DNA of 35,384 bases. It comes from a virus. Its lineage: Duplodnaviria; Heunggongvirae; Uroviricota; Caudoviricetes. Of the stretch, positions 1,749-35,384 are shown in pieces. Made by a program: the position numbers and the translations under genes. The notes beneath the pieces were generated by a model that saw only the letters and a program-made list of their open reading frames with translations, searched no databases and was not told the origin of the DNA. Each line of letters begins with the position of its first letter. Position 1 is the stretch's first letter. The stretch spans positions 1 to 35,384 of the IMG/VR virus record IMGVR_UViG_2684622552_000007; one strand, given 5' to 3'.

Positions 1749-2194
1749 TGGTTGCCTCCTTTGCGAAGCTGGGCAGCAAAGTCACGGATAGTGTCATCAA
1801 GGTCTGGGCACAACAGATGGTCAGCAAACATCTCTACCCCCTGCGCCCGTACTTCAGCCAGGAAAGCATCGGTGGCTGGGGTTTCAGTAACATCATCTTC
1901 CCATTCGCCAAACTCCTCACGACAAAAGTCATTAAATTCCTTCTCAGATTGCTTAAGCGAGATATTTTCTGCAGCCATCTTCGCGCATTTAGCCTCAAGG
2001 TTATCAATCGTGATTCCAGCAGAACGACACTCCCGCAACGCCGTTTCCAGTTTTGATTCAAGTTCACCGAACTTACGGACAAGATATTCAGCATTTGTTT
2101 CGTTAACCTTTAAATCTCGTGGGATGCATTTACCTTTCAGAAATCCATCCATCTCAATTAGTGTCATTTGTTTCATTTTTTCCCACTCCGCCAC
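1745..2194 (-). CDS. Hypothetical acidic coiled-coil protein (149 aa from GTG at 2194; 143 aa from ATG at 2176)
   Basis: Track ORF. The ATG at 2176 has a GGAG upstream and forms an ATGA overlap with the stop of the small ORF 2173-2337. Confidence 0.5.
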
Positions 2195-2337
2195 ATCGCA
2201 TTCAGATATTTGTTTTGATTCACTGATGGAAAAGAATTTCTCTTAAGTAATTCCTCTCTCGATGGCATTGGCTTTACGCGTTGGCGAATAATCATTTCTG
2301 CCGGAAGAATGCCGGGATTGTATGCAAGTCCTCTCAT
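2173..2337 (-). CDS. Small hypothetical protein (54 aa), below track threshold
   Basis: Hand translation [54 protein letters not shown]; AGAGGA SD 8 nt upstream of ATG 2337; stop overlaps the next start as ATGA. Confidence 0.35.
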
Positions 2338-2353
2338 GGTAAATTCCTCTTTG

Positions 2354-2668
2354 TTAATTTATTCGTATGCCCGCTCTTTCTTCATCGAGTTTTTTTAGCT
2401 TGTATCTCATAGCTCTTACTGAATAAATTGAGCGGCAGGTTGCAATTGCTATTTCTTCTGCGGAGAACTTACCGAAAAGTGATACTTCGGCTCTTGTCCA
2501 GCGTCTTCCACGAAGTCGGCTAACAATGTCAGCTCCAATCCTTGTTGCTTTCGCCATTACTGCTTTTTCAGTCCTTTCCAGTTTTTCAGCGATAACTTCA
2601 ACTGGCATTGTCGACGCCACTTCGCGCAAGAAATCGACTTCCCATTTCTCCCATGGAGTCTTTTTCAT
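2354..2668 (-). CDS. Hypothetical basic protein (104 aa), possible helix-turn-helix
   Basis: Track ORF in operon context between Gp157-like and distal genes; no family recognised. Confidence 0.5.
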
Positions 2669-2679
2669 AGGCGATACCG

Positions 2680-3168
2680 TTATTTGATAAGAAGTGAAGG
2701 TTTCCCAACTTTGAGTTGAGCGCCGGGGATATTTATTCCTGCTTTTAGTTGGTGTTTGATTGCCAGTTTGTCGGCTTTAATTGTCGTTTCAAACTCAACG
2801 TATTCAGGAGGAAGGGCGCTTGAGTCGATGATTTCTACGGTTTCTGACGGTTTGCGGATTGTTACCTGGTGAATACCTGCTCGAATCTTTTTCTTGCCAA
2901 CCATTTCAAGCGATGACGCTATATATGATTTGATGCTGTCAATCTTATTTTGAATTACTGCGGCTCGCTCATTTAGTGACTTCGCCTCTTCCTTGAGGCG
3001 TTCAGCATAACCAGATTCATTTTTAATAATGGCAAGAAGTTGCTCTATTTTATCGGTAAATTCTCCTTCCATGCCTTCTATTGTGTCAGCAATCATCTCT
3101 GGCTCTAAATCTGAATCCATCAGCTTTGCGTATTCATTGGCTATTTCATACAGTTTGCTCACTGGCAA
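2680..3168 (-). CDS. Gp157-family phage protein (162 aa), companion of RecT-type recombinases
   Basis: Size, composition and position directly downstream of recT match the Sipho_Gp157-type proteins (recall); start overlaps the RecT-like 3' end. Confidence 0.5.
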   Translation of the reverse strand: MPVSKLYEIANEYAKLMDSDLEPEMIADTIEGMEGEFTDKIEQLLAIIKNESGYAERLKEEAKSLNERAAVIQNKIDSIKSYIASSLEMVGKKKIRAGIHQVTIRKPSETVEIIDSSALPPEYVEFETTIKADKLAIKHQLKAGINIPGAQLKVGKPSLLIK

Positions 3169-4057
3169 CCTCCAGTTTCGCTTTGCATTCTATGTAAATG
3201 GCTTGTACGTTCTGCTGCAATTTCATTCCAGATGTCAGGCGATATGCTTCTGCAAAATATCGCTTCAAATCATCCATGTTTTCTGCCTGAGCCATTTCAT
3301 CGCAAAGAAGTTGTGCTTTATCCATTATTTCCTGCTGGCGTTTCCGTTCATCTTCGCGGATATCTTCCTCTGATTTGTGCGGCATAACTGGTTCAGTCCA
3401 TACACCTTCTTCTTCGTTTAGTACGTGAATAGCACTATCAAGACGTGATGCCTTAGGCCAATACTTGCTTGCACGCTTTACGACCGTCTTTCGTGCCATC
3501 TCATTCCAGTGATTTACCCATGGTCCTTTATCGCTGAATGCTGCCTTGCTTGTTTTCCTTACAGCCTCAATTTCAGCCAGACTCATCTCTTCCGTTAGAT
3601 AATCACCTGCTGGCGTCTTAACTGTGCAGTAAACGCCAACGATATCACCACGATCACCGAAGGCGTTGTATTTATGGGTTGGTGCTTTATCAAGCCCGTT
3701 TGACTCATAGGTATCGTTAGCATGAACAAGTTTTGCCTGACCCCATGAGATAACACCAGACTCCATTGCAATATGGAGCAATCCCATATAGCTGATATCA
3801 AGGCAAACCATGCCGTCGCGCGGAACCAGATAAGCAAGTTTGCTGGCCGGGTTTAAGGTGATGCCGATCGCCGCAACATTGATGATGGCGTTCTGTGCGC
3901 TGGTTGGATTTGCCAGTGCCGTTTTAGCCAGGTAATCGTTTTTCTGGAAATACTGAATTGCAAACTGGCTTTCCTTAGCCCATGTCACCGTCTGTTCAGT
4001 CAATGCTCCGCAGAATAACTGCTCTTGCTGTTTAACGAATTCAACGATATTGCTCAT
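3146..4057 (-). CDS. recT: RecT-family single-strand annealing recombinase (303 aa)
   Basis: Motif DKGPWVNHWNEMARKTVVKRASKYWP matches the conserved RecT segment GPWVTHWEEMAKKTAIRRLFKYLP (recall of Rac RecT). Confidence 0.8.
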   Translation of the reverse strand: MSNIVEFVKQQEQLFCGALTEQTVTWAKESQFAIQYFQKNDYLAKTALANPTSAQNAIINVAAIGITLNPASKLAYLVPRDGMVCLDISYMGLLHIAMESGVISWGQAKLVHANDTYESNGLDKAPTHKYNAFGDRGDIVGVYCTVKTPAGDYLTEEMSLAEIEAVRKTSKAAFSDKGPWVNHWNEMARKTVVKRASKYWPKASRLDSAIHVLNEEEGVWTEPVMPHKSEEDIREDERKRQQEIMDKAQLLCDEMAQAENMDDLKRYFAEAYRLTSGMKLQQNVQAIYIECKAKLEVASEQTV

Positions 4058-4365
4058 GCTGCTTCTCCATAAATGTGTCTGCGTTTGAATATTGCGAAAG
4101 CATATTCAGCCTTAACTCTTTCGGTTATTGCATCCCAGAACCATTCAGCGGCTTTTTCCTGATAGTTACAGTCATCATCTTCCAGCCAGTCGATAGCGTC
4201 CTTAGTGTGTTCATCTGGTTTATATGAGCGAAGCATTTCGCTTATTGGGTCGCAACGTTTGCAGAGGCGATCAACTTCACTGTTGATTCGTTCGTAATCA
4301 TCATCGGTAAAACTTGCGATGATTTGCGATATTTCACGCTTATCATTCAGAGTCAGAATCATCAT
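4054..4365 (-). CDS. Hypothetical acidic protein (103 aa) upstream of recT
   Basis: Track ORF; ATGA overlap with the recT start; far too small to be a RecE/YqaJ-type exonuclease. Confidence 0.5.
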   Translation of the reverse strand: MMILTLNDKREISQIIASFTDDDYERINSEVDRLCKRCDPISEMLRSYKPDEHTKDAIDWLEDDDCNYQEKAAEWFWDAITERVKAEYAFAIFKRRHIYGEAA

Positions 4366-4446
4366 CTTTCTCCTGTTCTTTGTGCTGATTGAGCATTTTG
4401 TTCATCTGACGAATGAATTCTTCGTCTGACCAGTTATCTGTAAAAC

Positions 4447-4599
4447 TCATTTCCTGCGATACCACGGAAGGTTGATAGCTGATTTCATCGCTTTATTTGC
4501 TTCAAGCCACATTTTTGAATCACCAATAAATCTGGCTATTACTGCTTTGTTCTGTGCAGCACGAAGCATCTGGTGATTGATGGCTATTTCATTGCGCAT
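4447..4599 (-). CDS. Kil-like small protein (50 aa), below track threshold
   Basis: Hand translation MRNEIAINHQMLRAAQNKAVIARFIGDSKMWLEANKAMKSAINLPWYRRK; FIGD.KM motif and position (between cIII-like and the recombination genes) recall lambda Kil; GGAGG SD upstream. Confidence 0.4.
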   Translation of the reverse strand: MRNEIAINHQMLRAAQNKAVIARFIGDSKMWLEANKAMKSAINLPWYRRK

Positions 4600-5970: not shown

Positions 5971-6122
5971 GGGTAACTCCTTATATTTGATTGCATAACT
6001 AAAATGCCTCTCGTGAAGCATTATTGGTATGCATATAAAAAGGCCCTCACACTGGAGGGCAAAGAAGATTTCCAATAATCAGAACAAGTCGGCTCCTGTT
6101 TAGTTACGAGCGACATTGCTCC

Positions 6123-6150
6123 GTGTATTCACTCATTGGAATGAATACAC
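6123..6150 (-). repeat. Perfect 9-bp inverted repeat (GTGTATTCA-10 nt-TGAATACAC) between the membrane gene and cIII-like
   Basis: Seen directly in the sequence; potential RNA hairpin or protein-binding palindrome in the leftward transcript. Confidence 0.4.
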
Positions 6151-6174
6151 AGTGCAGTGTTTATTCTGTTGTTT

Positions 6175-6205
6175 ATGCCAAAAATAAAGGCCGACTATGC
6201 GGCCT
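6175..6205 (-). terminator. Intrinsic terminator after the membrane-protein gene (minus strand)
   Basis: Minus-strand AGGCCG-CATAGT-CGGCCT followed by TTTATTTTT, starting a few nt after the stop at 6210. Confidence 0.6.
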
Positions 6206-6209
6206 GAAA

Positions 6210-6659
6210 TTACTTAACCAATGATGCTGCATATTCGATAAGGTAAAGTTTTGGGGCCAGCCAAATTTTTAACCAAGTCATATTGGTTACTACACCAATA
6301 ATAAAAATCCCCCACAGAGTCAAAACTCCAACCAATGGCATGATAAGAAGATTAATATCACCTTTGCTATCCCAAACCATTGTCGGCCTGTATTTGGGAT
6401 TTCCTTTCTCCCATGAATATCCTTCATCACCGATTTTACCTGTCTCAACTCTTTGGCACTGCTTCTTCATAAACCAGAAAACCAGTGGGATTGTTAGAAT
6501 GGCTATTAATGTTTTAATCAGACTGTCAACCATATTCCATAGCAGCAACTGATGAACAACATCAGGAATCTGTGCTTGGCTAAATGAAACAGCCGCGTCT
6601 ATTCCATTACTGGCTTTTTGCAGTAGTTCTACGAGAATCTTGTTTGCTTGTTCTTCCAT
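6210..6659 (-). CDS. Two-helix membrane protein (149 aa) in the sieB position; candidate superinfection-exclusion/abortive-infection protein
   Basis: Hydrophobic segments LIKTLIAILTIPLVFWF and INLLIMPLVGVLTLWGIFIIGVV; lies between ral-like and cIII-like as sieB does in lambda. Function inferred from synteny only. Confidence 0.45.
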   Translation of the reverse strand: MEEQANKILVELLQKASNGIDAAVSFSQAQIPDVVHQLLLWNMVDSLIKTLIAILTIPLVFWFMKKQCQRVETGKIGDEGYSWEKGNPKYRPTMVWDSKGDINLLIMPLVGVLTLWGIFIIGVVTNMTWLKIWLAPKLYLIEYAASLVK

Positions 6660-6717
6660 ATATCACCTTGATTGTAATAAGCATGAAATTATTTACGGCC
6701 AAAAATAAAGGCCACCA

Positions 6718-6918
6718 TCAGGCAGCCTTGTTGTTCTGTTTACCAAGTTCTCTGGCAATCATTGCCGTCGTTCGTATTGCCCATTTATCGACATATTTCC
6801 CATCTTCCATTACAGGAAACATTTCTTCAGGCTTAACCATGCATTCCGATTGCAGCTTGCATCCATTGCATCGCTTGAATTGTCCACACCATTGATTTTT
6901 ATCAATAGTCGTAGTCAT
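6718..6918 (-). CDS. ral: Ral-like restriction-alleviation protein (66 aa)
   Basis: MTTTIDKNQWCGQFKRCNGCKLQSECMVKPEEMFPVMEDGKYVDKWAIRTTAMIARELGKQNNKAA matches lambda Ral by recall; position downstream of N in the leftward operon. Confidence 0.7.
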   Translation of the reverse strand: MTTTIDKNQWCGQFKRCNGCKLQSECMVKPEEMFPVMEDGKYVDKWAIRTTAMIARELGKQNNKAA

Positions 6919-6988
6919 ACGGATAGTCCTGGTATTGTTCCATCACATCCTGAGGATGCTCTTCGAACTCTTCAAATTCTTCTTCCAT
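6902..6988 (-). CDS. Small acidic ORF (28 aa), below track threshold
   Basis: MEEEFEEFEEHPQDVMEQYQDYPYDYDY; GAGGTG SD about 5 nt upstream of ATG 6988; overlaps the ral start by 17 nt. Confidence 0.3.
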   Translation of the reverse strand: MEEEFEEFEEHPQDVMEQYQDYPYDYDY

Positions 6989-7042
6989 ATATCACCTCAA
7001 ATAAGTGGTTTGCTGCGAAAATAAATCCGCTTAAGTTACCTG

Positions 7043-27450: not shown

Positions 27451-28078
27451 GCACCTCAGCAAAACTGTTTACTGCAAAGGTGGCAGTGATGGCGGTTCAA
27501 AAGCCCAGGCACGCGCAACTGAAAAGGGCATCGAACTGCAGCGTGAAATGTGGCAAACGAACATGCAAAACCTTGCACCGTTCACGCCACTCGCTCAACA
27601 GTACGTATCAGAGTTGCAGAATCTTTCCTCTCTTCAGGGGCAAGGTCAGGCGCTTAACCAGTATTACAACTCCCAGCAGTACAAAGACCTTGCTGGTCAG
27701 GCGCGTTATCAGAGTCTTGCTGCAGCAGAGGCAACGGGTGGATTAGGCTCTACAGCGACAGGAAACCAGTTGGCAGCAATCGCACCTACACTCGGTCAAA
27801 ACTGGTTGTCAGGTCAGATGAACAACTACAACAATCTGGCAAATATTGGCCTTGGCGCTCTTACAGGTCAGGCAAACGCCGGACAGAACTATGCCAACAA
27901 CGTCAGCCAGTTGTATCAACAGCAGGCGGCAGCAGCGGCAGCAAATGCCAATAAACCGTCTGGCTTTCAGAGTGCTCTCGGTGGAGCTGCGGCAGGTGCT
28001 GCGATGGGGACTGCAATCATGCCTGGTTGGGGTACAGCAATTGGTGCTGGCGTCGGCCTTCTTGGTTCACTGTTTTAA
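27425..28078 (+). CDS. Ejection (internal) protein, P22 gp7 position
   Basis: Synteny; Gln/Asn/Ala/Gly-rich low-complexity protein with a hydrophobic Gly-rich C-terminus; GGAG SD upstream of ATG. Confidence 0.55.
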   Translation: MLIFQIANKHLSKTVYCKGGSDGGSKAQARATEKGIELQREMWQTNMQNLAPFTPLAQQYVSELQNLSSLQGQGQALNQYYNSQQYKDLAGQARYQSLAAAEATGGLGSTATGNQLAAIAPTLGQNWLSGQMNNYNNLANIGLGALTGQANAGQNYANNVSQLYQQQAAAAAANANKPSGFQSALGGAAAGAAMGTAIMPGWGTAIGAGVGLLGSLF

Positions 28079-31482: not shown

Positions 31483-31647
31483 TTTCGCAAACACCAGGAA
31501 CGTGCAAAAACCAAATATGTAGAACGCAATATTCAACAGATCTCTTTGCATAGACTCATCTCATAATTAACAGATCATAACTGACATTAGTGCAATGCCG
31601 GGCAAGTTGCATCTTGTTCCGCATTGCTACGTCCGGAGCAAATTAAA

Positions 31648-34065
31648 ATGACAGACATTACAGCTAATGTGATCGTATCAATGCCTTCGCAACTCTTCAC
31701 TATGGCTCGTTCTTTTAAAGCGGTTGCCAATGGCAAAATTTATATCGGTAAAATTGACACTGACCCGGTAAATCCTGAAAACCAGATTCAGGTTTATGTG
31801 GAGAACGAAGATGGCTCTCACGTTCCTGTTTCGCAACCAATCATCATTAACGCTGCTGGATATCCTGTATATAACGGGCAGATTGCCAAGTTCGTAACTG
31901 TGCAAGGCCATTCTATGGCTGTTTATGATGCGTACGGGGCACAGCAGTTCTATTATCCTAATGTACTGAAATACGATCCTGACCAGTTGCGCATTGAATT
32001 AGCTAATGGCAATGGTTCTCTTGTAAACACCCGATATGGAACACTTGATGAATATGTAGAGAAGACACCAAGTATTCTGGCTACAAAATATATGACAGAA
32101 GCTGAACTATTATCTGTTTTGAATCGTGACAGAAGTGTTTTTGTTGATCAGGCTCTTCAGTTAGCCGCTAATGAGGCAGCAGAAAAAGGTTGTGGTGTAT
32201 TCTGTCCTCCTGGTGATTATGTTGTCGATAAGAAAGTAAATCTATGGACTGGAATAACATCATTCTGGGGGGATGGTGGGGCAACGATTGTAAGAAGTCA
32301 GCGATCATATTTCATGTCCGGTTCGACTACGGATATTGATCCTACTCAGGACCGTTCAAATATGTTGCTGGTTGCCTCAGGGGCTAGCGGTAACATTTCT
32401 ATCCATGGTTTACGTTTTGATGGAAATGCAAGGAATATGGAGGTTGGTACTTCGGGTTCGGGAACATCAATCCCCGACCAGACACGATACATAGACGTAT
32501 GTCCGACAAACGCTGAACCCTATGACAACACCCCAGATGGAGTTAAAACACCAGTACCTAATGTTTCTTGGTCTGATCACAGGTATTCAAAAGGTGGTAT
32601 TAACATTTTTGACTGTGTTTTCTACGATTCACCGGGGTCATGTATCGGTGGCAACATGCGTAATATTCGCATCCATGGTAATTCAATGGACGGATGGTAT
32701 GATCACGCCGTGTACACTGCAGGAGCTACTTGGGATACAAACGGTCAGGGAGCTTTGGTTGAAGATATCGCTGTAATTGGTAACTCGATGAAGAATAGAG
32801 TGAATACCAGAGGTAATGGATGTATAAAAGGTCGCTGTGGATTTACACGTTTATCAATTATAGGTAACAATATTGACGTTTTAGATAACGCAATTGTTCT
32901 TGATATGCCAGGATCAAACGGAAATATTCCTTGGGGGCAGATTACTGTCTCTGGAAATAATATACAAACTCAAGGTGTTGGCATTCATATTGTACCTGGT
33001 ACATCAACAACTCCTTGGATAGATACAGGGTGGATGCGATCTCTTGTTGCTTCTGGTAACACCATCAGAGCTTATGATCGCATTATGTTAATTGGGACTC
33101 CTGGTGTTGTTATTGAGTCTGCTATTATATCACTTAATAATAACACTATGATAGCACCATTGTTCATGACCAATTACGCGCAAATGAGCAATTGTGAATT
33201 TAAGATAATTGGCGGGGTAATTGCCACTACTGGAACAACATTCATGTTTGCTCAAGATTCATCAAACATATCATCAAACAGTGGCATTGAATTCAATGGT
33301 GCAACACTTAGATCTGACTCAACATCATCAGTTGGTTTTGCCGCTGTTGGAAATTTTAATAGAATAAAAATATCTAATTGCAATATTTCAAATATCAACT
33401 TTGCAACAGGATCGGCAGCAACAGAGCTAAGAGTAATAGATAACAAAGTTTCTTATTACTCAGGTTTTTCCTTAATGCCATTCATTGATGTTATGACATC
33501 CACTAATGTCGGTTTAATGAATTTTATTTCATTAACAGGAAATGAGTTCACAAATGGACCATCTTTAATCAGGATTAAGTGCTCATCAAATTGCCTTGCT
33601 TCTTTTATAGAAAACAAGTTCTATAATTGTGGCACTCGAGTTGTTAAATTCCATCCTGCAGGATATACACCAAGGTCCCTTATTGTAAGAGGCAACATCC
33701 AGATAGGCGGTTTTTTGTTTGATCAATTACAAACGGGGGTATCAAAAGCAACAGGAACTAGTTATGCAGAATTTTCTAGAAACTATATATCATCATCTAC
33801 CCCTGGAACGGCAGGAAATGCAACAATGCTGATAGATGATGGAGCAACTCCATGGCTTTCACAGTATGAGAATATCAGAATTGCTGACAACATGTTTAAG
33901 GATGCAATTAACGTCATTCAGTGCTCTGGATCTGCAGTGTCAGGGATAGCGTCACAGAACAAATTGTGGTTCGGGGATAACTCGACAACAAATTCGACTG
34001 CTACATGCCAGTACCCAGCAGCAAATAAGGCGAATACAGACATGCCGCAAAACATTACATTGTAA
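31648..34065 (+). CDS. Tailspike protein: P22-type N-terminal head-binding domain plus divergent AT-rich beta-helix receptor-binding domain (805 aa)
   Basis: From ATG 31648: [59 protein letters not shown] matches the P22 gp9 head-binding domain (recall); downstream repeats of the IGN.I / SGN.I type indicate a parallel beta-helix. The track start at 31624 is a non-ATG extension. Confidence 0.85.
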
Positions 34066-34100
34066 ATATCTAGAGCGCATTATTAGACTTTAATTGTAAT

Positions 34101-34129
34101 AAGCAACCTCCTAACAGAGGAGGTTGCTT
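34101..34129. terminator. Bidirectional intrinsic terminator between the convergent tailspike and glycosyltransferase genes
   Basis: AAGCAACCTCC-loop-GGAGGTTGCTT perfect hairpin with A/T-rich flanks on both strands. Confidence 0.7.
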
Positions 34130-34133
34130 ATTA

Positions 34134-35384
34134 TTACTGCTGAGAAACTCTAATGTATAAATCTTCGTATTGTTTAGCTACAATAGAGAAATCCCATAAA
34201 GTGGTTGCTTTTCCCCGGCCCATTGCACCCATTTCAGCATTTAATGACTCATCATCTAATAACAATTTTATACCTGCAGCCATATCTTCATGGTCAAATG
34301 CCTTCGCAAGATATCCATCTTGCATATGACTTACAACATCTGTTAGCCCTGTGCAGTCAAATGTAACAACAGGTGTCCCACAAGATAGTGATTCTGAAGC
34401 TGTTTGTCCAAAAGCCTCTTGTCGAGATGGGACAACCATCACATCTGCTGAGTTATAGATCAGTGATAGTGTCACATCATCACTGACATGCCCAAGCCAT
34501 TTTACTTTAAATGGTATATCTGTTTTCTCTTTTGGCTCACTTTGACCAAAAACAACGCAAATTATTTCATCAGTTGATACTTGATGTGATAATGAATTTA
34601 TCGCTTTGATTAGCAAATCATATCCTTTTCTTTGATCTTTGGTTCCACCAATTGCCCCGAAAAGAATAATTTTCTTATCCGCTGGGATTCCAAGAATTGA
34701 ACGAGATAAATTTTTATCTATAGGCTTATATATAGATGTATCGATTGCATTTGGTATGATTGTTATATCGCTATGCCTGAACAGCTTGCTTCTTTTTGCG
34801 CAGTTAGCCAGCCATTTGCTAGGTGATACGATATGCATTCTAGTATTCCAGGCAATCCCCTTTCTCAAATATGCAATTTTGTCAGTATCAATCCCTGATT
34901 CACCTTGTGGTCTATTTTGTGATGTATATCCTACAGCCCATCTAGCATGGGTTTCATCAGGAGCATAATGCTCACTTCCGCAGAAAGGCCACATGTCGTG
35001 TAATGTCCAAATAATTGGTTTTCTAATTTTACCAATATCATTAAAAGATATTGTTTCTCCTGAAACCCAATGTAGGTTAACTACTGTGGCATCACTGTTG
35101 TTAATTTCTTTGCTCCACATCGAAGGGAGCCAATTTCCAGAATGAAAATTGAAGTTGTCTGTTTTTTGCAGCCTATCGATTAATTGTCCTAACCTTGGTC
35201 TTATAGCATTTATTAATTTTTCTGTTTTACTGGTGGCACCAATAACTGTGTGATCATCAGAATACTTGTTTCTGACACGCATTTTTGATTCCACTCCGGC
35301 TAAGCGCAAGGCACGGTGTAGCCTATAAGTTGCACGAGCCGCGCCACCTACAATATCATTCTGAGCAATAATCAAAGGCTTCAT
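34134..35384 (-). CDS. Family GT4 (group 1) glycosyltransferase, 416 aa; start codon is the last 3 nt of the window
   Basis: C-terminal GT-B motif PSRQEAFGQTASESLSCGTPVVTFD (E-x7-E type); AT-rich; no obvious TM segments. The N-terminus could extend beyond the window. Confidence 0.8.
   Translation of the reverse strand: MKPLIIAQNDIVGGAARATYRLHRALRLAGVESKMRVRNKYSDDHTVIGATSKTEKLINAIRPRLGQLIDRLQKTDNFNFHSGNWLPSMWSKEINNSDATVVNLHWVSGETISFNDIGKIRKPIIWTLHDMWPFCGSEHYAPDETHARWAVGYTSQNRPQGESGIDTDKIAYLRKGIAWNTRMHIVSPSKWLANCAKRSKLFRHSDITIIPNAIDTSIYKPIDKNLSRSILGIPADKKIILFGAIGGTKDQRKGYDLLIKAINSLSHQVSTDEIICVVFGQSEPKEKTDIPFKVKWLGHVSDDVTLSLIYNSADVMVVPSRQEAFGQTASESLSCGTPVVTFDCTGLTDVVSHMQDGYLAKAFDHEDMAAGIKLLLDDESLNAEMGAMGRGKATTLWDFSIVAKQYEDLYIRVSQQ

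Follow-up and report, generated by a model that had tools for sequence, protein, structure and literature searches.

Does the glycosyltransferase gene that faces the tailspike gene at the right end of a P22-like prophage belong to the phage, and if so, what would it do for the lysogen? The locus lies in IMG/VR record IMGVR_UViG_2684622552_000007, a 35,384-nucleotide stretch of caudoviricete DNA that was analysed at its full length (the window), and a tailspike gene with a convergent gene for a GT4 glycosyltransferase occupies its right end. An earlier note on this DNA had read the pair as an AT-rich receptor module in which a lysogenic-conversion gene might match the receptor of the tailspike, and had held that phage cargo and host DNA beyond the right attachment site (attR) could not be told apart. 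Sequence beyond the window decides for cargo: only three genes lie between the tailspike gene and attR, and the module forms the right-hand end of a P22-like prophage that sits in the lambda attachment site (ybhC/ybhB, gal-bio). The conversion unit is larger than the earlier note saw, since the GT4 gene is accompanied by genes for another glycosyltransferase and for a Wzx flippase. On balance we regard these three genes, hereafter the cassette, as probably a lysogenic-conversion module that would alter undecaprenyl diphosphate (Und-PP)-linked O-units in the cytoplasm and export them with its own flippase. The proposed match between conversion gene and tailspike receptor gains strong indirect support from their linkage in at least six contexts, although the conversion function itself is deduced.

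The cassette is phage cargo. The tailspike and GT4 genes both lie on contig JZWN02000029.1 of assembly GCA_000968895.2, as exact protein matches revealed, and the host of the prophage is Escherichia fergusonii GTA-EF03; the GT4 accession is likewise named E. fergusonii. JZWN denotes strain GTA-EF03, a ground beef isolate whose published description states no serotype (PMC4832150). Sequence beyond position 35384 was read from this source contig (a coordinate in L003 plus 21647 gives the window-equivalent coordinate), and the attR region was aligned with lambda attP (NC_001416) and with the empty K-12 site between ybhC and ybhB. A lambda-type P arm, the core ACTTTTTTATACTAA and a B' arm follow one another there (Table 1), and this P-O-B' junction is, judged by the alignment, attR, ~2.9 kb past the window end. 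Because attR lies beyond two further cassette genes, all three genes (GT-A, GT4 and Wzx) belong to the phage. Other prophage copies are homologous to the window up to the start of the lambda-type P arm and no further. We also looked for attR between the two convergent genes (34065-34134) and ruled it out, as this interval has no att site, the spacer consists of a hairpin only, the homology of the other copies runs through it and the true attR is elsewhere. No tRNA was found in this interval or at the attR region. The host flank at L003 16751-18575 (ybhB-bioA) is ~95% identical to E. coli genomes, the host being E. fergusonii. The lambda att site of many E. coli strains is occupied by unrelated lambdoid prophages; in strain 55989, for example, the cargo beside attR is a diguanylate cyclase gene. 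The cassette was absent from 5,426 complete E. coli genomes at any locus at the megablast level.

The receptor domain and the glycosyltransferase genes travel together. A tailspike that is 79-86% identical in amino acids over the receptor domain adjoins GT4 in every copy examined, and the two occur together in at least six prophage or host contexts, beside at least four sets of host genes (Table 1), whereas the other virion genes of these copies are far more diverged or of different alleles. Compared with the Salmonella houtenae (L092) and E. coli (L096) copies, Wzx is 98-99% identical, the second glycosyltransferase (GT-A) 78-89% and GT4 78-81%, and these mosaic identities point to recombination inside the module. 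Between copies, the genes for GT4, GT-A, Wzx and the tailspike all have a ratio of nonsynonymous to synonymous substitution rates (dN/dS) of 0.03-0.13, with synonymous sites near saturation; cassette and tailspike genes are thus under strong purifying selection and maintained as functional genes. The cassette was found in well over 100 public assemblies of E. coli, E. fergusonii, S. houtenae 45:g,z51:- and Citrobacter, with the S. houtenae GT-A variant alone on ~97 contigs. Deposited phages gave a different picture. When 50,697 phage records were searched by tblastn with GT4, Wzx and the receptor domain, the matches were weak or generic, with nothing above 34% identity for the cassette, and an IMG/VR pattern scan with GT4 returned two unrelated GT4 proteins (21-23% identity) and no close homologue. 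In one Salmonella copy (L104) an integrase gene directly adjoins the glycosyltransferase pair, beside a gene of the formate/nitrite-transporter family.

All three cassette proteins have recognizable families. GT4 scores above the Pfam cut-offs for Glycos_transf_1 (108.3 bits, cut-off 26.4), Glyco_transf_4 (37.2 bits, cut-off 28.5) and Glyco_trans_1_4 (88 bits), carries an EX7E motif at E323-AFGQTAS-E331 with E331 invariant in 16 homologues, and has no membrane segment in a hydropathy scan, which agrees with the convergent soluble GT4 of the earlier note. The supposed loss of its N-terminus to the window edge proved wrong: its ATG forms the last three bases of the window, and the 416-residue protein is complete, since the aligned homologues have a common N-terminus and similar length. 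For a polysaccharide glycosyltransferase the family is unusually conserved, with the invariant motif HDMWPFCGxEHY; relatives 50-56% identical occur in Providencia, Aeromonas, Shewanella, Vibrio and Edwardsiella, and relatives 36-51% identical in cyanobacteria, methylotrophs, candidate-phyla bacteria and methanogens.

The stop codon of the second glycosyltransferase gene overlaps the GT4 start by 4 nt (ATGA, 35381-35384), the only part of the remaining cassette inside the window. Its product matches PF03071 at 29.8 bits (cut-off 25.4) over residues 94-150 only, the DXD region, in which E103-D104-D105 is invariant in 24 homologues. The AlphaFold model (mean predicted local distance difference test, pLDDT, 75.6) has two disordered stretches, and its best PDB fold match is rabbit GnT-I (E=1e-7) at a template modelling (TM) score of 0.37. 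The model and motif point to a predicted GT-A fold with a DXD motif in a protein that would be GT13-like. Like GT4, GT-A has no hydrophobic span in the hydropathy scan. By profile and size, the 430-residue protein would be a Wzx flippase of the MOP family (~400-500 residues, ~12 spans); a crude Kyte-Doolittle scan gave at least nine separate hydrophobic segments. No NCBIfam family scored above its cut-off for GT4, GT-A or Wzx, the equivalog matches of GT4 all falling far below, and therefore no donor or acceptor is assigned to the cassette. PADLOC returned no defence-system match for the three proteins, and a defence-system reading was dropped for that reason. The cassette lacks wzy, an initiating transferase and nucleotide-sugar genes, and is thus not a complete Wzx/Wzy O-antigen cluster.

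The tailspike combines a common N-terminus with a rare receptor domain. Translation most likely starts at the ATG at 31648 (MTDITANV...) within a longer open reading frame (ORF). The P22-type head-binding N-terminus recognized in the earlier note is borne out by the Pfam Head_binding profile, which is covered in full, and by a PDB sequence search with the tailspike that matched the N-termini of the Sf6, P22 and HK620 tailspikes only; the similarity to Sf6 extends to about residue 238, so that the neck is homologous. The head-binding DNA is 86-97% identical to that of many P22-like phages and prophages, and near-identical DNA covering only the first ~340-450 nt of the gene occurs in deposited phages and in 1,133 of the 5,426 complete E. 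coli genomes. In contrast, the receptor domain and GT4 had no near-identical DNA in either set, and neither set thus contains an annotated twin of the region. Beyond residue 113, the tailspike has no Pfam match, and the PDB sequence search detected no similarity of the receptor domain to any solved tailspike. Its AlphaFold model (pLDDT 81) is all-beta, with short repeated strands forming a long beta-helix. Foldseek matched it to PL6 alginate lyases, the HK620 tailspike, AlgE epimerases and phi29 gp12, and the matches to beta-helix lyases and the HK620 tailspike have a probability of 1.0 with TM scores of only 0.2-0.4. These predictions settle the fold class as a parallel beta-helix, as modelled.

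The receptor-domain family is rare, with 22 clusters among 5.8 billion proteins. The closest protein that tblastn found in the 50,697 phage records, tail spike 3 of Salmonella phage Vi01 (38% identity), and a KEP4 protein at the same 38% identity are the only deposited relatives. Elsewhere the family is fused to N-termini of the PF18668 (TSP1/Gp66) type, and in one cluster to PF12708. The PF18668 fusions clearly illustrate how temperate P22-like phages have exchanged receptor domains with phages whose tailspikes attach through another domain.

The cassette occupies the classical conversion-gene slot of P22-like phages, as is seen in two deposited annotations, Sf6 with the order tailspike, terminator, oac, int, attP and epsilon34 with the order tailspike, terminator, gtrCBA, attP, int. 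The analogy of position drawn in the earlier note is upheld by these two annotations, and the conversion gene-then-int order of Sf6 is resembled by the Salmonella L104 copy. The gtrABC genes of P22, epsilon34, SfII/SfV/SfX and Hf4s lie in the same slot, converge on the tailspike gene with a terminator between, and number three including a flippase and glycosyltransferases, as in the cassette. The presumed purpose of gtr is serotype conversion and the exclusion of phages of its own kind (PMC2629481, PMC7685785, bioRxiv 10.1101/2021.06.09.447823). However, gtrABC has no homology to the cassette. GtrA is a small (~120 residues) flippase for Und-P-glucose, whereas the 430-residue Wzx belongs to the MOP family, which handles Und-PP-oligosaccharides; GtrB is a GT2 enzyme with C-terminal membrane anchors and GtrC a polytopic periplasmic one that acts on the polymer after export, whereas both cassette glycosyltransferases are soluble and cytoplasmic. 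The cassette proteins match Wzx, GNT-I/GT-A and GT4 models instead of those of a gtrABC operon. The earlier note had expected a soluble GT4 enzyme to differ in mechanistic class from gtrABC and oac; the cassette belongs to neither, because Gtr proteins and an acyltransferase are absent.

The other known systems differ at other points. The oac gene of Sf6 shares slot and orientation with the cassette and stands beside a tailspike gene whose head-binding DNA is ~87% identical, but it encodes a single membrane acyltransferase that adds acetyl groups rather than sugars, and it has no flippase. Phage Wzy systems (epsilon15, iap/wzy-beta of Pseudomonas D3, Acinetobacter phage Wzy) resemble the cassette in placing a component of the Wzx/Wzy pathway in a prophage. 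Phage-borne Wzy, with or without inhibitors, rewires the O-antigen or capsule assembly of the host (PMC9241936, PMC4815439). These systems alter the polymerisation linkage in the periplasm, whereas the cassette has no polymerase and instead has a flippase and two cytoplasmic transferases. The tailspikes of Sf6, HK620 and P22 (Lederbergvirus) share with the window tailspike the combination of head-binding domain and beta-helix receptor domain. In the open-access literature, we found no prophage with wzx and cytoplasmic glycosyltransferases; phage O-antigen conversion is described there for gtr, oac and wzy/iap only.

We propose the following sequence of events. In the lysogen, two soluble Leloir-type transferases would add one or two sugars to the Und-PP-linked O-unit at the cytoplasmic face, and any modification would have to precede flipping because both enzymes are soluble and cytoplasmic. 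The phage Wzx would flip the altered unit into the periplasm, where its polymerisation and ligation would fall to Wzy, Wzz and WaaL of the host. The linked tailspike would then fail to bind or cut the altered O-antigen, which would result in superinfection exclusion and a change of serotype. We infer the O-unit substrate, the sugar transfer, the expression from the prophage and the effect on adsorption. The cassette is transcribed away from the late operon and has its own divergent AT-rich region, with a strong hairpin separating it from the tailspike gene.

Several points weigh against this proposal. Copies without wzx in Citrobacter and several Salmonella show that the flippase is not obligatory, and they suggest that the glycosyltransferase pair is the core of the function, with the flippase as a host-dependent helper. 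With no polymerase, initiating transferase or nucleotide-sugar genes, the cassette depends on its host. That the lysogen expresses the cassette is an assumption drawn solely from where the genes lie and how they are oriented. The Pfam family 'GT4-conflict' (PF20706) also scores above its cut-off for GT4 (40.7 bits), over the generic C-terminal Rossmann half only. Finally, the export role of the phage Wzx is deduced from the substrate preference of Wzx proteins, reportedly established in the work of Reeves' laboratory.

Chromosomal relatives suggest where the cassette came from. In Providencia (L008/L009), Wzx, a ~303-residue glycosyltransferase and GT4, 49-53% identical to the cassette proteins, head a full Wzx/Wzy-type polysaccharide cluster that adds a putative repeat-unit polymerase, three GT2 genes, gmd, fcl, gmm, manC, manB and ugd, and the trio has the same 4-nt GT-A/GT4 overlap as the prophage cassette. 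Such chromosomal clusters contain a polymerase, more glycosyltransferases and nucleotide-sugar pathways, whereas the prophage has the trio or pair only, joined to a tailspike, with the pair inverted relative to wzx. Relatives of the trio clusters also occur in Aeromonas, Shewanella, Vibrio, cyanobacteria and methanogens. Among 80 distant genomes fetched (L012-L091), a GT-A relative lay within 10 kb of GT4 in 58% and a Wzx relative in 38%, and in several of these loci a gene of ~310 codons stands directly upstream of GT4 with the same 4-nt overlap. The prophage thus seems to have captured the flippase and two transferases of a repeat-unit pathway and not its polymerase, initiating transferase or sugar-nucleotide genes, and the 34-38% GC content of the cassette fits an origin in polysaccharide clusters. 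Many distant loci carry a Wzx of the same family, and cyanobacterial loci a Wzy_C-type protein. The product of the widespread GT-A/GT4 pair appears biochemically uncharacterised. Several proteobacterial relatives have gmd and a true GDP-L-fucose synthase gene right after GT4; GDP-fucose or GDP-mannose as donor is kept as a lead only, since gmd was near GT4 in just 17 of the 80 distant loci.

The place of the trio at the head of larger clusters, in Providencia and many other genomes, can also be read differently, since it suggests that the pair builds the reducing-end part of a repeat unit. The glycosyltransferases might then extend the Und-PP-GlcNAc made by WecA to a di- or trisaccharide unrelated to the host O-unit, which the phage Wzx would flip and WaaL would cap onto lipid A-core (or a host polymerase extend), giving a new minor antigen that competes with O-antigen for carrier lipid and ligase. 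A flippase beside two glycosyltransferases is indeed what a self-contained unit-making set would contain. We nevertheless consider this autonomous glycan unlikely, because copies with the glycosyltransferase pair only persist under selection with the same tailspike, and because so close a link with a single receptor-domain family speaks for an action on that receptor. Moreover, without a polymerase the result would be single units and a thinned O-antigen shield, an odd benefit when the shield is the receptor.

Somewhat less probable still is a target other than O-antigen, such as capsule/K-antigen, colanic acid, enterobacterial common antigen, the lipopolysaccharide core or a glycoprotein, with a tailspike that recognizes it. 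The fold matches of the receptor domain include PL6 polysaccharide lyases besides the O-antigen-cleaving HK620 tailspike, the best full-family match in PHROGs is 'tail spike protein with colanic acid degradation activity' (residues 1-201 only), the proteobacterial relatives of the pair stand beside gmd and fcl for GDP-fucose, a colanic acid sugar, and the weak NCBIfam matches of Wzx are to exopolysaccharide and O-glycosylation flippases. However, these matches are all generic or below family cut-offs, and the characterised P22-like tailspikes that share this N-terminus and came up in the analysis carry annotations for O-antigen cleavage (Sf6, epsilon34), the K1 endosialidase of CUS-3 being the exception. 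The variable antigen shared by Escherichia, S. houtenae and Citrobacter is typically O-antigen, which also counts against another glycan.

That GT4 comes from a host locus beyond attR, or is a decaying remnant of imprecise excision, is highly improbable despite the low GC content, the homology to chromosomal polysaccharide clusters of other genera, the insertion between tailspike and GT4 in S. houtenae and the loss of wzx in some copies, because attR beyond the cassette excludes host DNA, the cassette moves with P22-like prophages beside at least four host-gene sets, its ORFs are intact at the low dN/dS given above, and none of the 5,426 complete E. coli genomes carries it.

Table 1. Features of the tailspike-cassette locus in window-equivalent coordinates, followed by the other copies of the module with their settings.
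Feature or copy	Position or setting	Strand	Content and evidence	Tailspike identity
Tailspike, 805 aa	31648-34065	+	ORF 31624-34065; P22-type head-binding and predicted beta-helix receptor domain	
Head-binding domain, aa 1-113	31648-31986	+	PF09008, E=8e-67; PDB sequence matches	
Receptor-binding domain, aa 121-805	32008-34065	+	Predicted right-handed beta-helix, 39.8% GC; AlphaFold, Foldseek	
17-bp perfect inverted repeat, 5-nt loop	34096-34134		Between convergent genes; putative bidirectional terminator	
GT4 (GT-B fold) glycosyltransferase, 416 aa	34134-35384	-	Second gene of two-gene operon; Pfam	
GT-A-fold, GnT-I-like glycosyltransferase, 304 aa	35381-36295 (L003 13734-14648)	-	Upstream of GT4; predicted fold	
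Divergent control region, 331 bp	36296-36626		Between GT-A and wzx; 30% GC; invariant ATGATCGAC motif	
Putative Wzx flippase, 430 aa	36627-37919 (L003 14980-16272)	+	PF01943 92 bits, PF13440 87 bits	
Lambda-type P arm	~38067-38292		Beyond window; ~225 nt, ~90% identical to lambda 27540-27738	
att core ACTTTTTTATACTAA	38293-38307 (L003 16646-16660)		Beyond window; 14/15 match to lambda core	
B' arm, then ybhB, bioA, bioBFCD, uvrB	Right of core		Beyond window; B' identical to K-12 attB	
S. enterica copy (L005/L006)	Beside thrS		Wzx, GT-A, GT4	85% (C-terminal part only)
C. freundii copy (L007)	Beside thrS		GT-A, GT4, no wzx	79%
S. houtenae 45:g,z51:- copy (L092/L093)	Beside polysaccharide-lyase/autotransporter locus		Wzx, GT-A, GT4, insertion sequence (IS) element	86%
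E. coli copy (L096)	Beside LysR/MFS locus		Wzx, GT-A, GT4	85% (partial)
Salmonella copies (L104-L106)	Integrase adjacent (L104) or thrS (L105/L106)		GT-A, GT4, no wzx	85%

The base composition of the module sets it apart in part. GC content is 42.5% in the head-binding segment, 33.8% in the 68-bp spacer and 38.3% in GT4, compared with 48.6% in the rest of the prophage in the window and 52.4% in the coat gene. The contrast between the beta-helix and the portal gene in the earlier note is confirmed (39.8% against 51.8%), but its value of ~30% GC is a low extreme and not the mean, as 100-bp windows of the receptor domain span 27-52%. Low GC (34-38%) runs through all three cassette genes and stops abruptly at host genes of 55% GC. 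Stretches of the early region (~2000-4500 and 6000-7000) are likewise AT-rich, at 40-42% GC in 500-bp windows, and low GC alone therefore does not single out the receptor module.

The hairpin between the convergent genes is strong. It folds at -26.9 kcal/mol on the plus strand and -25.4 kcal/mol on the minus strand (z -5.5 and -5.7), no shuffled sequence out of 200 was as stable, and it overlaps the GT4 stop codon. A terminator consensus scan picked up just a 5-bp version on the minus strand, and the flanking U-tracts are weak. The earlier note's bidirectional terminator is for this reason retained as a hairpin whose terminator role is plausible but unproven. In the S. houtenae 45:g,z51:- copies (CP075174.1, CAADIQ010000001.1), which represent the most frequent form of the module in Salmonella, an IS element lies exactly in the tailspike-GT4 spacer; it encodes an rve-family transposase of 346 residues (L092/L093 12315-13355) and replaces or disrupts the hairpin region.

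The control region between GT-A and wzx contains a conserved element. The 9-nt ATGATCGAC, with a Dam GATC inside, lies at L003 14700-14720 (~36350-36365). All five aligned prophage copies share it unchanged, even though two of them have intergenic DNA around it that is diverged to near-random. Copies of the window type have a second GATC ~35 nt away, overlapping a sigma-70-like promoter (10/12), and just one GATC is conserved across all copies. Dam/OxyR phase variation has been described for P22 gtr (PMC2909390). The GATC of ATGATCGAC is reminiscent of it, with no claim of phase variation made for the cassette.

The tailspike gene is the last gene of the late operon, 3' of the gp7/gp20/gp16 ejection-protein genes; P22_gp7, Inj_translocase and Phage_P22_gp16 were recognized directly upstream by Pfam on the called genes. 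At the other end, the window starts one base from the start of contig JZWN02000029.1, within the early-left region of the prophage, which means that another contig must contain the integrase gene, xis and attL. This region, in which the window begins (positions 1-300), has ead/Ea22-like and RecT-type genes, as judged from similarity to E. coli prophages.

Prophage-encoded O-antigen conversion drives serotype diversity, failures of vaccines and typing, and phage host range in Escherichia, Shigella and Salmonella. Every mechanism found in textbooks and reviews either modifies the exported polymer (gtrABC, oac) or substitutes another polymerase, whereas the cassette would act earlier. Pre-export remodelling of O-antigen by two glycosyltransferases and a dedicated Wzx, welded to a tailspike that reads the unmodified antigen, could tentatively be counted as a fourth class of seroconversion, a suggestion we hold with less confidence than the conversion function itself. 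The cassette would in that case be a widespread but undescribed conversion cassette, working at a step different from the known ones and carrying only generic database names. Because neither the deposited phage genomes nor the IMG/VR scan contained it, current in-silico serotyping and phage-receptor prediction overlook it. It would provide a natural test of the strictness with which Wzx flippases and Wzy polymerases tell modified repeat units apart, and its fixed pairing with a rare receptor domain offers biochemistry a matched pair of enzyme and modification. The transferase for the GlcNAc side-branch of O151 has not been located (reviewed in PMC7685785). If our interpretation is true, the cassette could supply the missing 'gene elsewhere' to account for side-branches that differ, so far without explanation, among serogroups of E. 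coli and Salmonella, O151 being one example.

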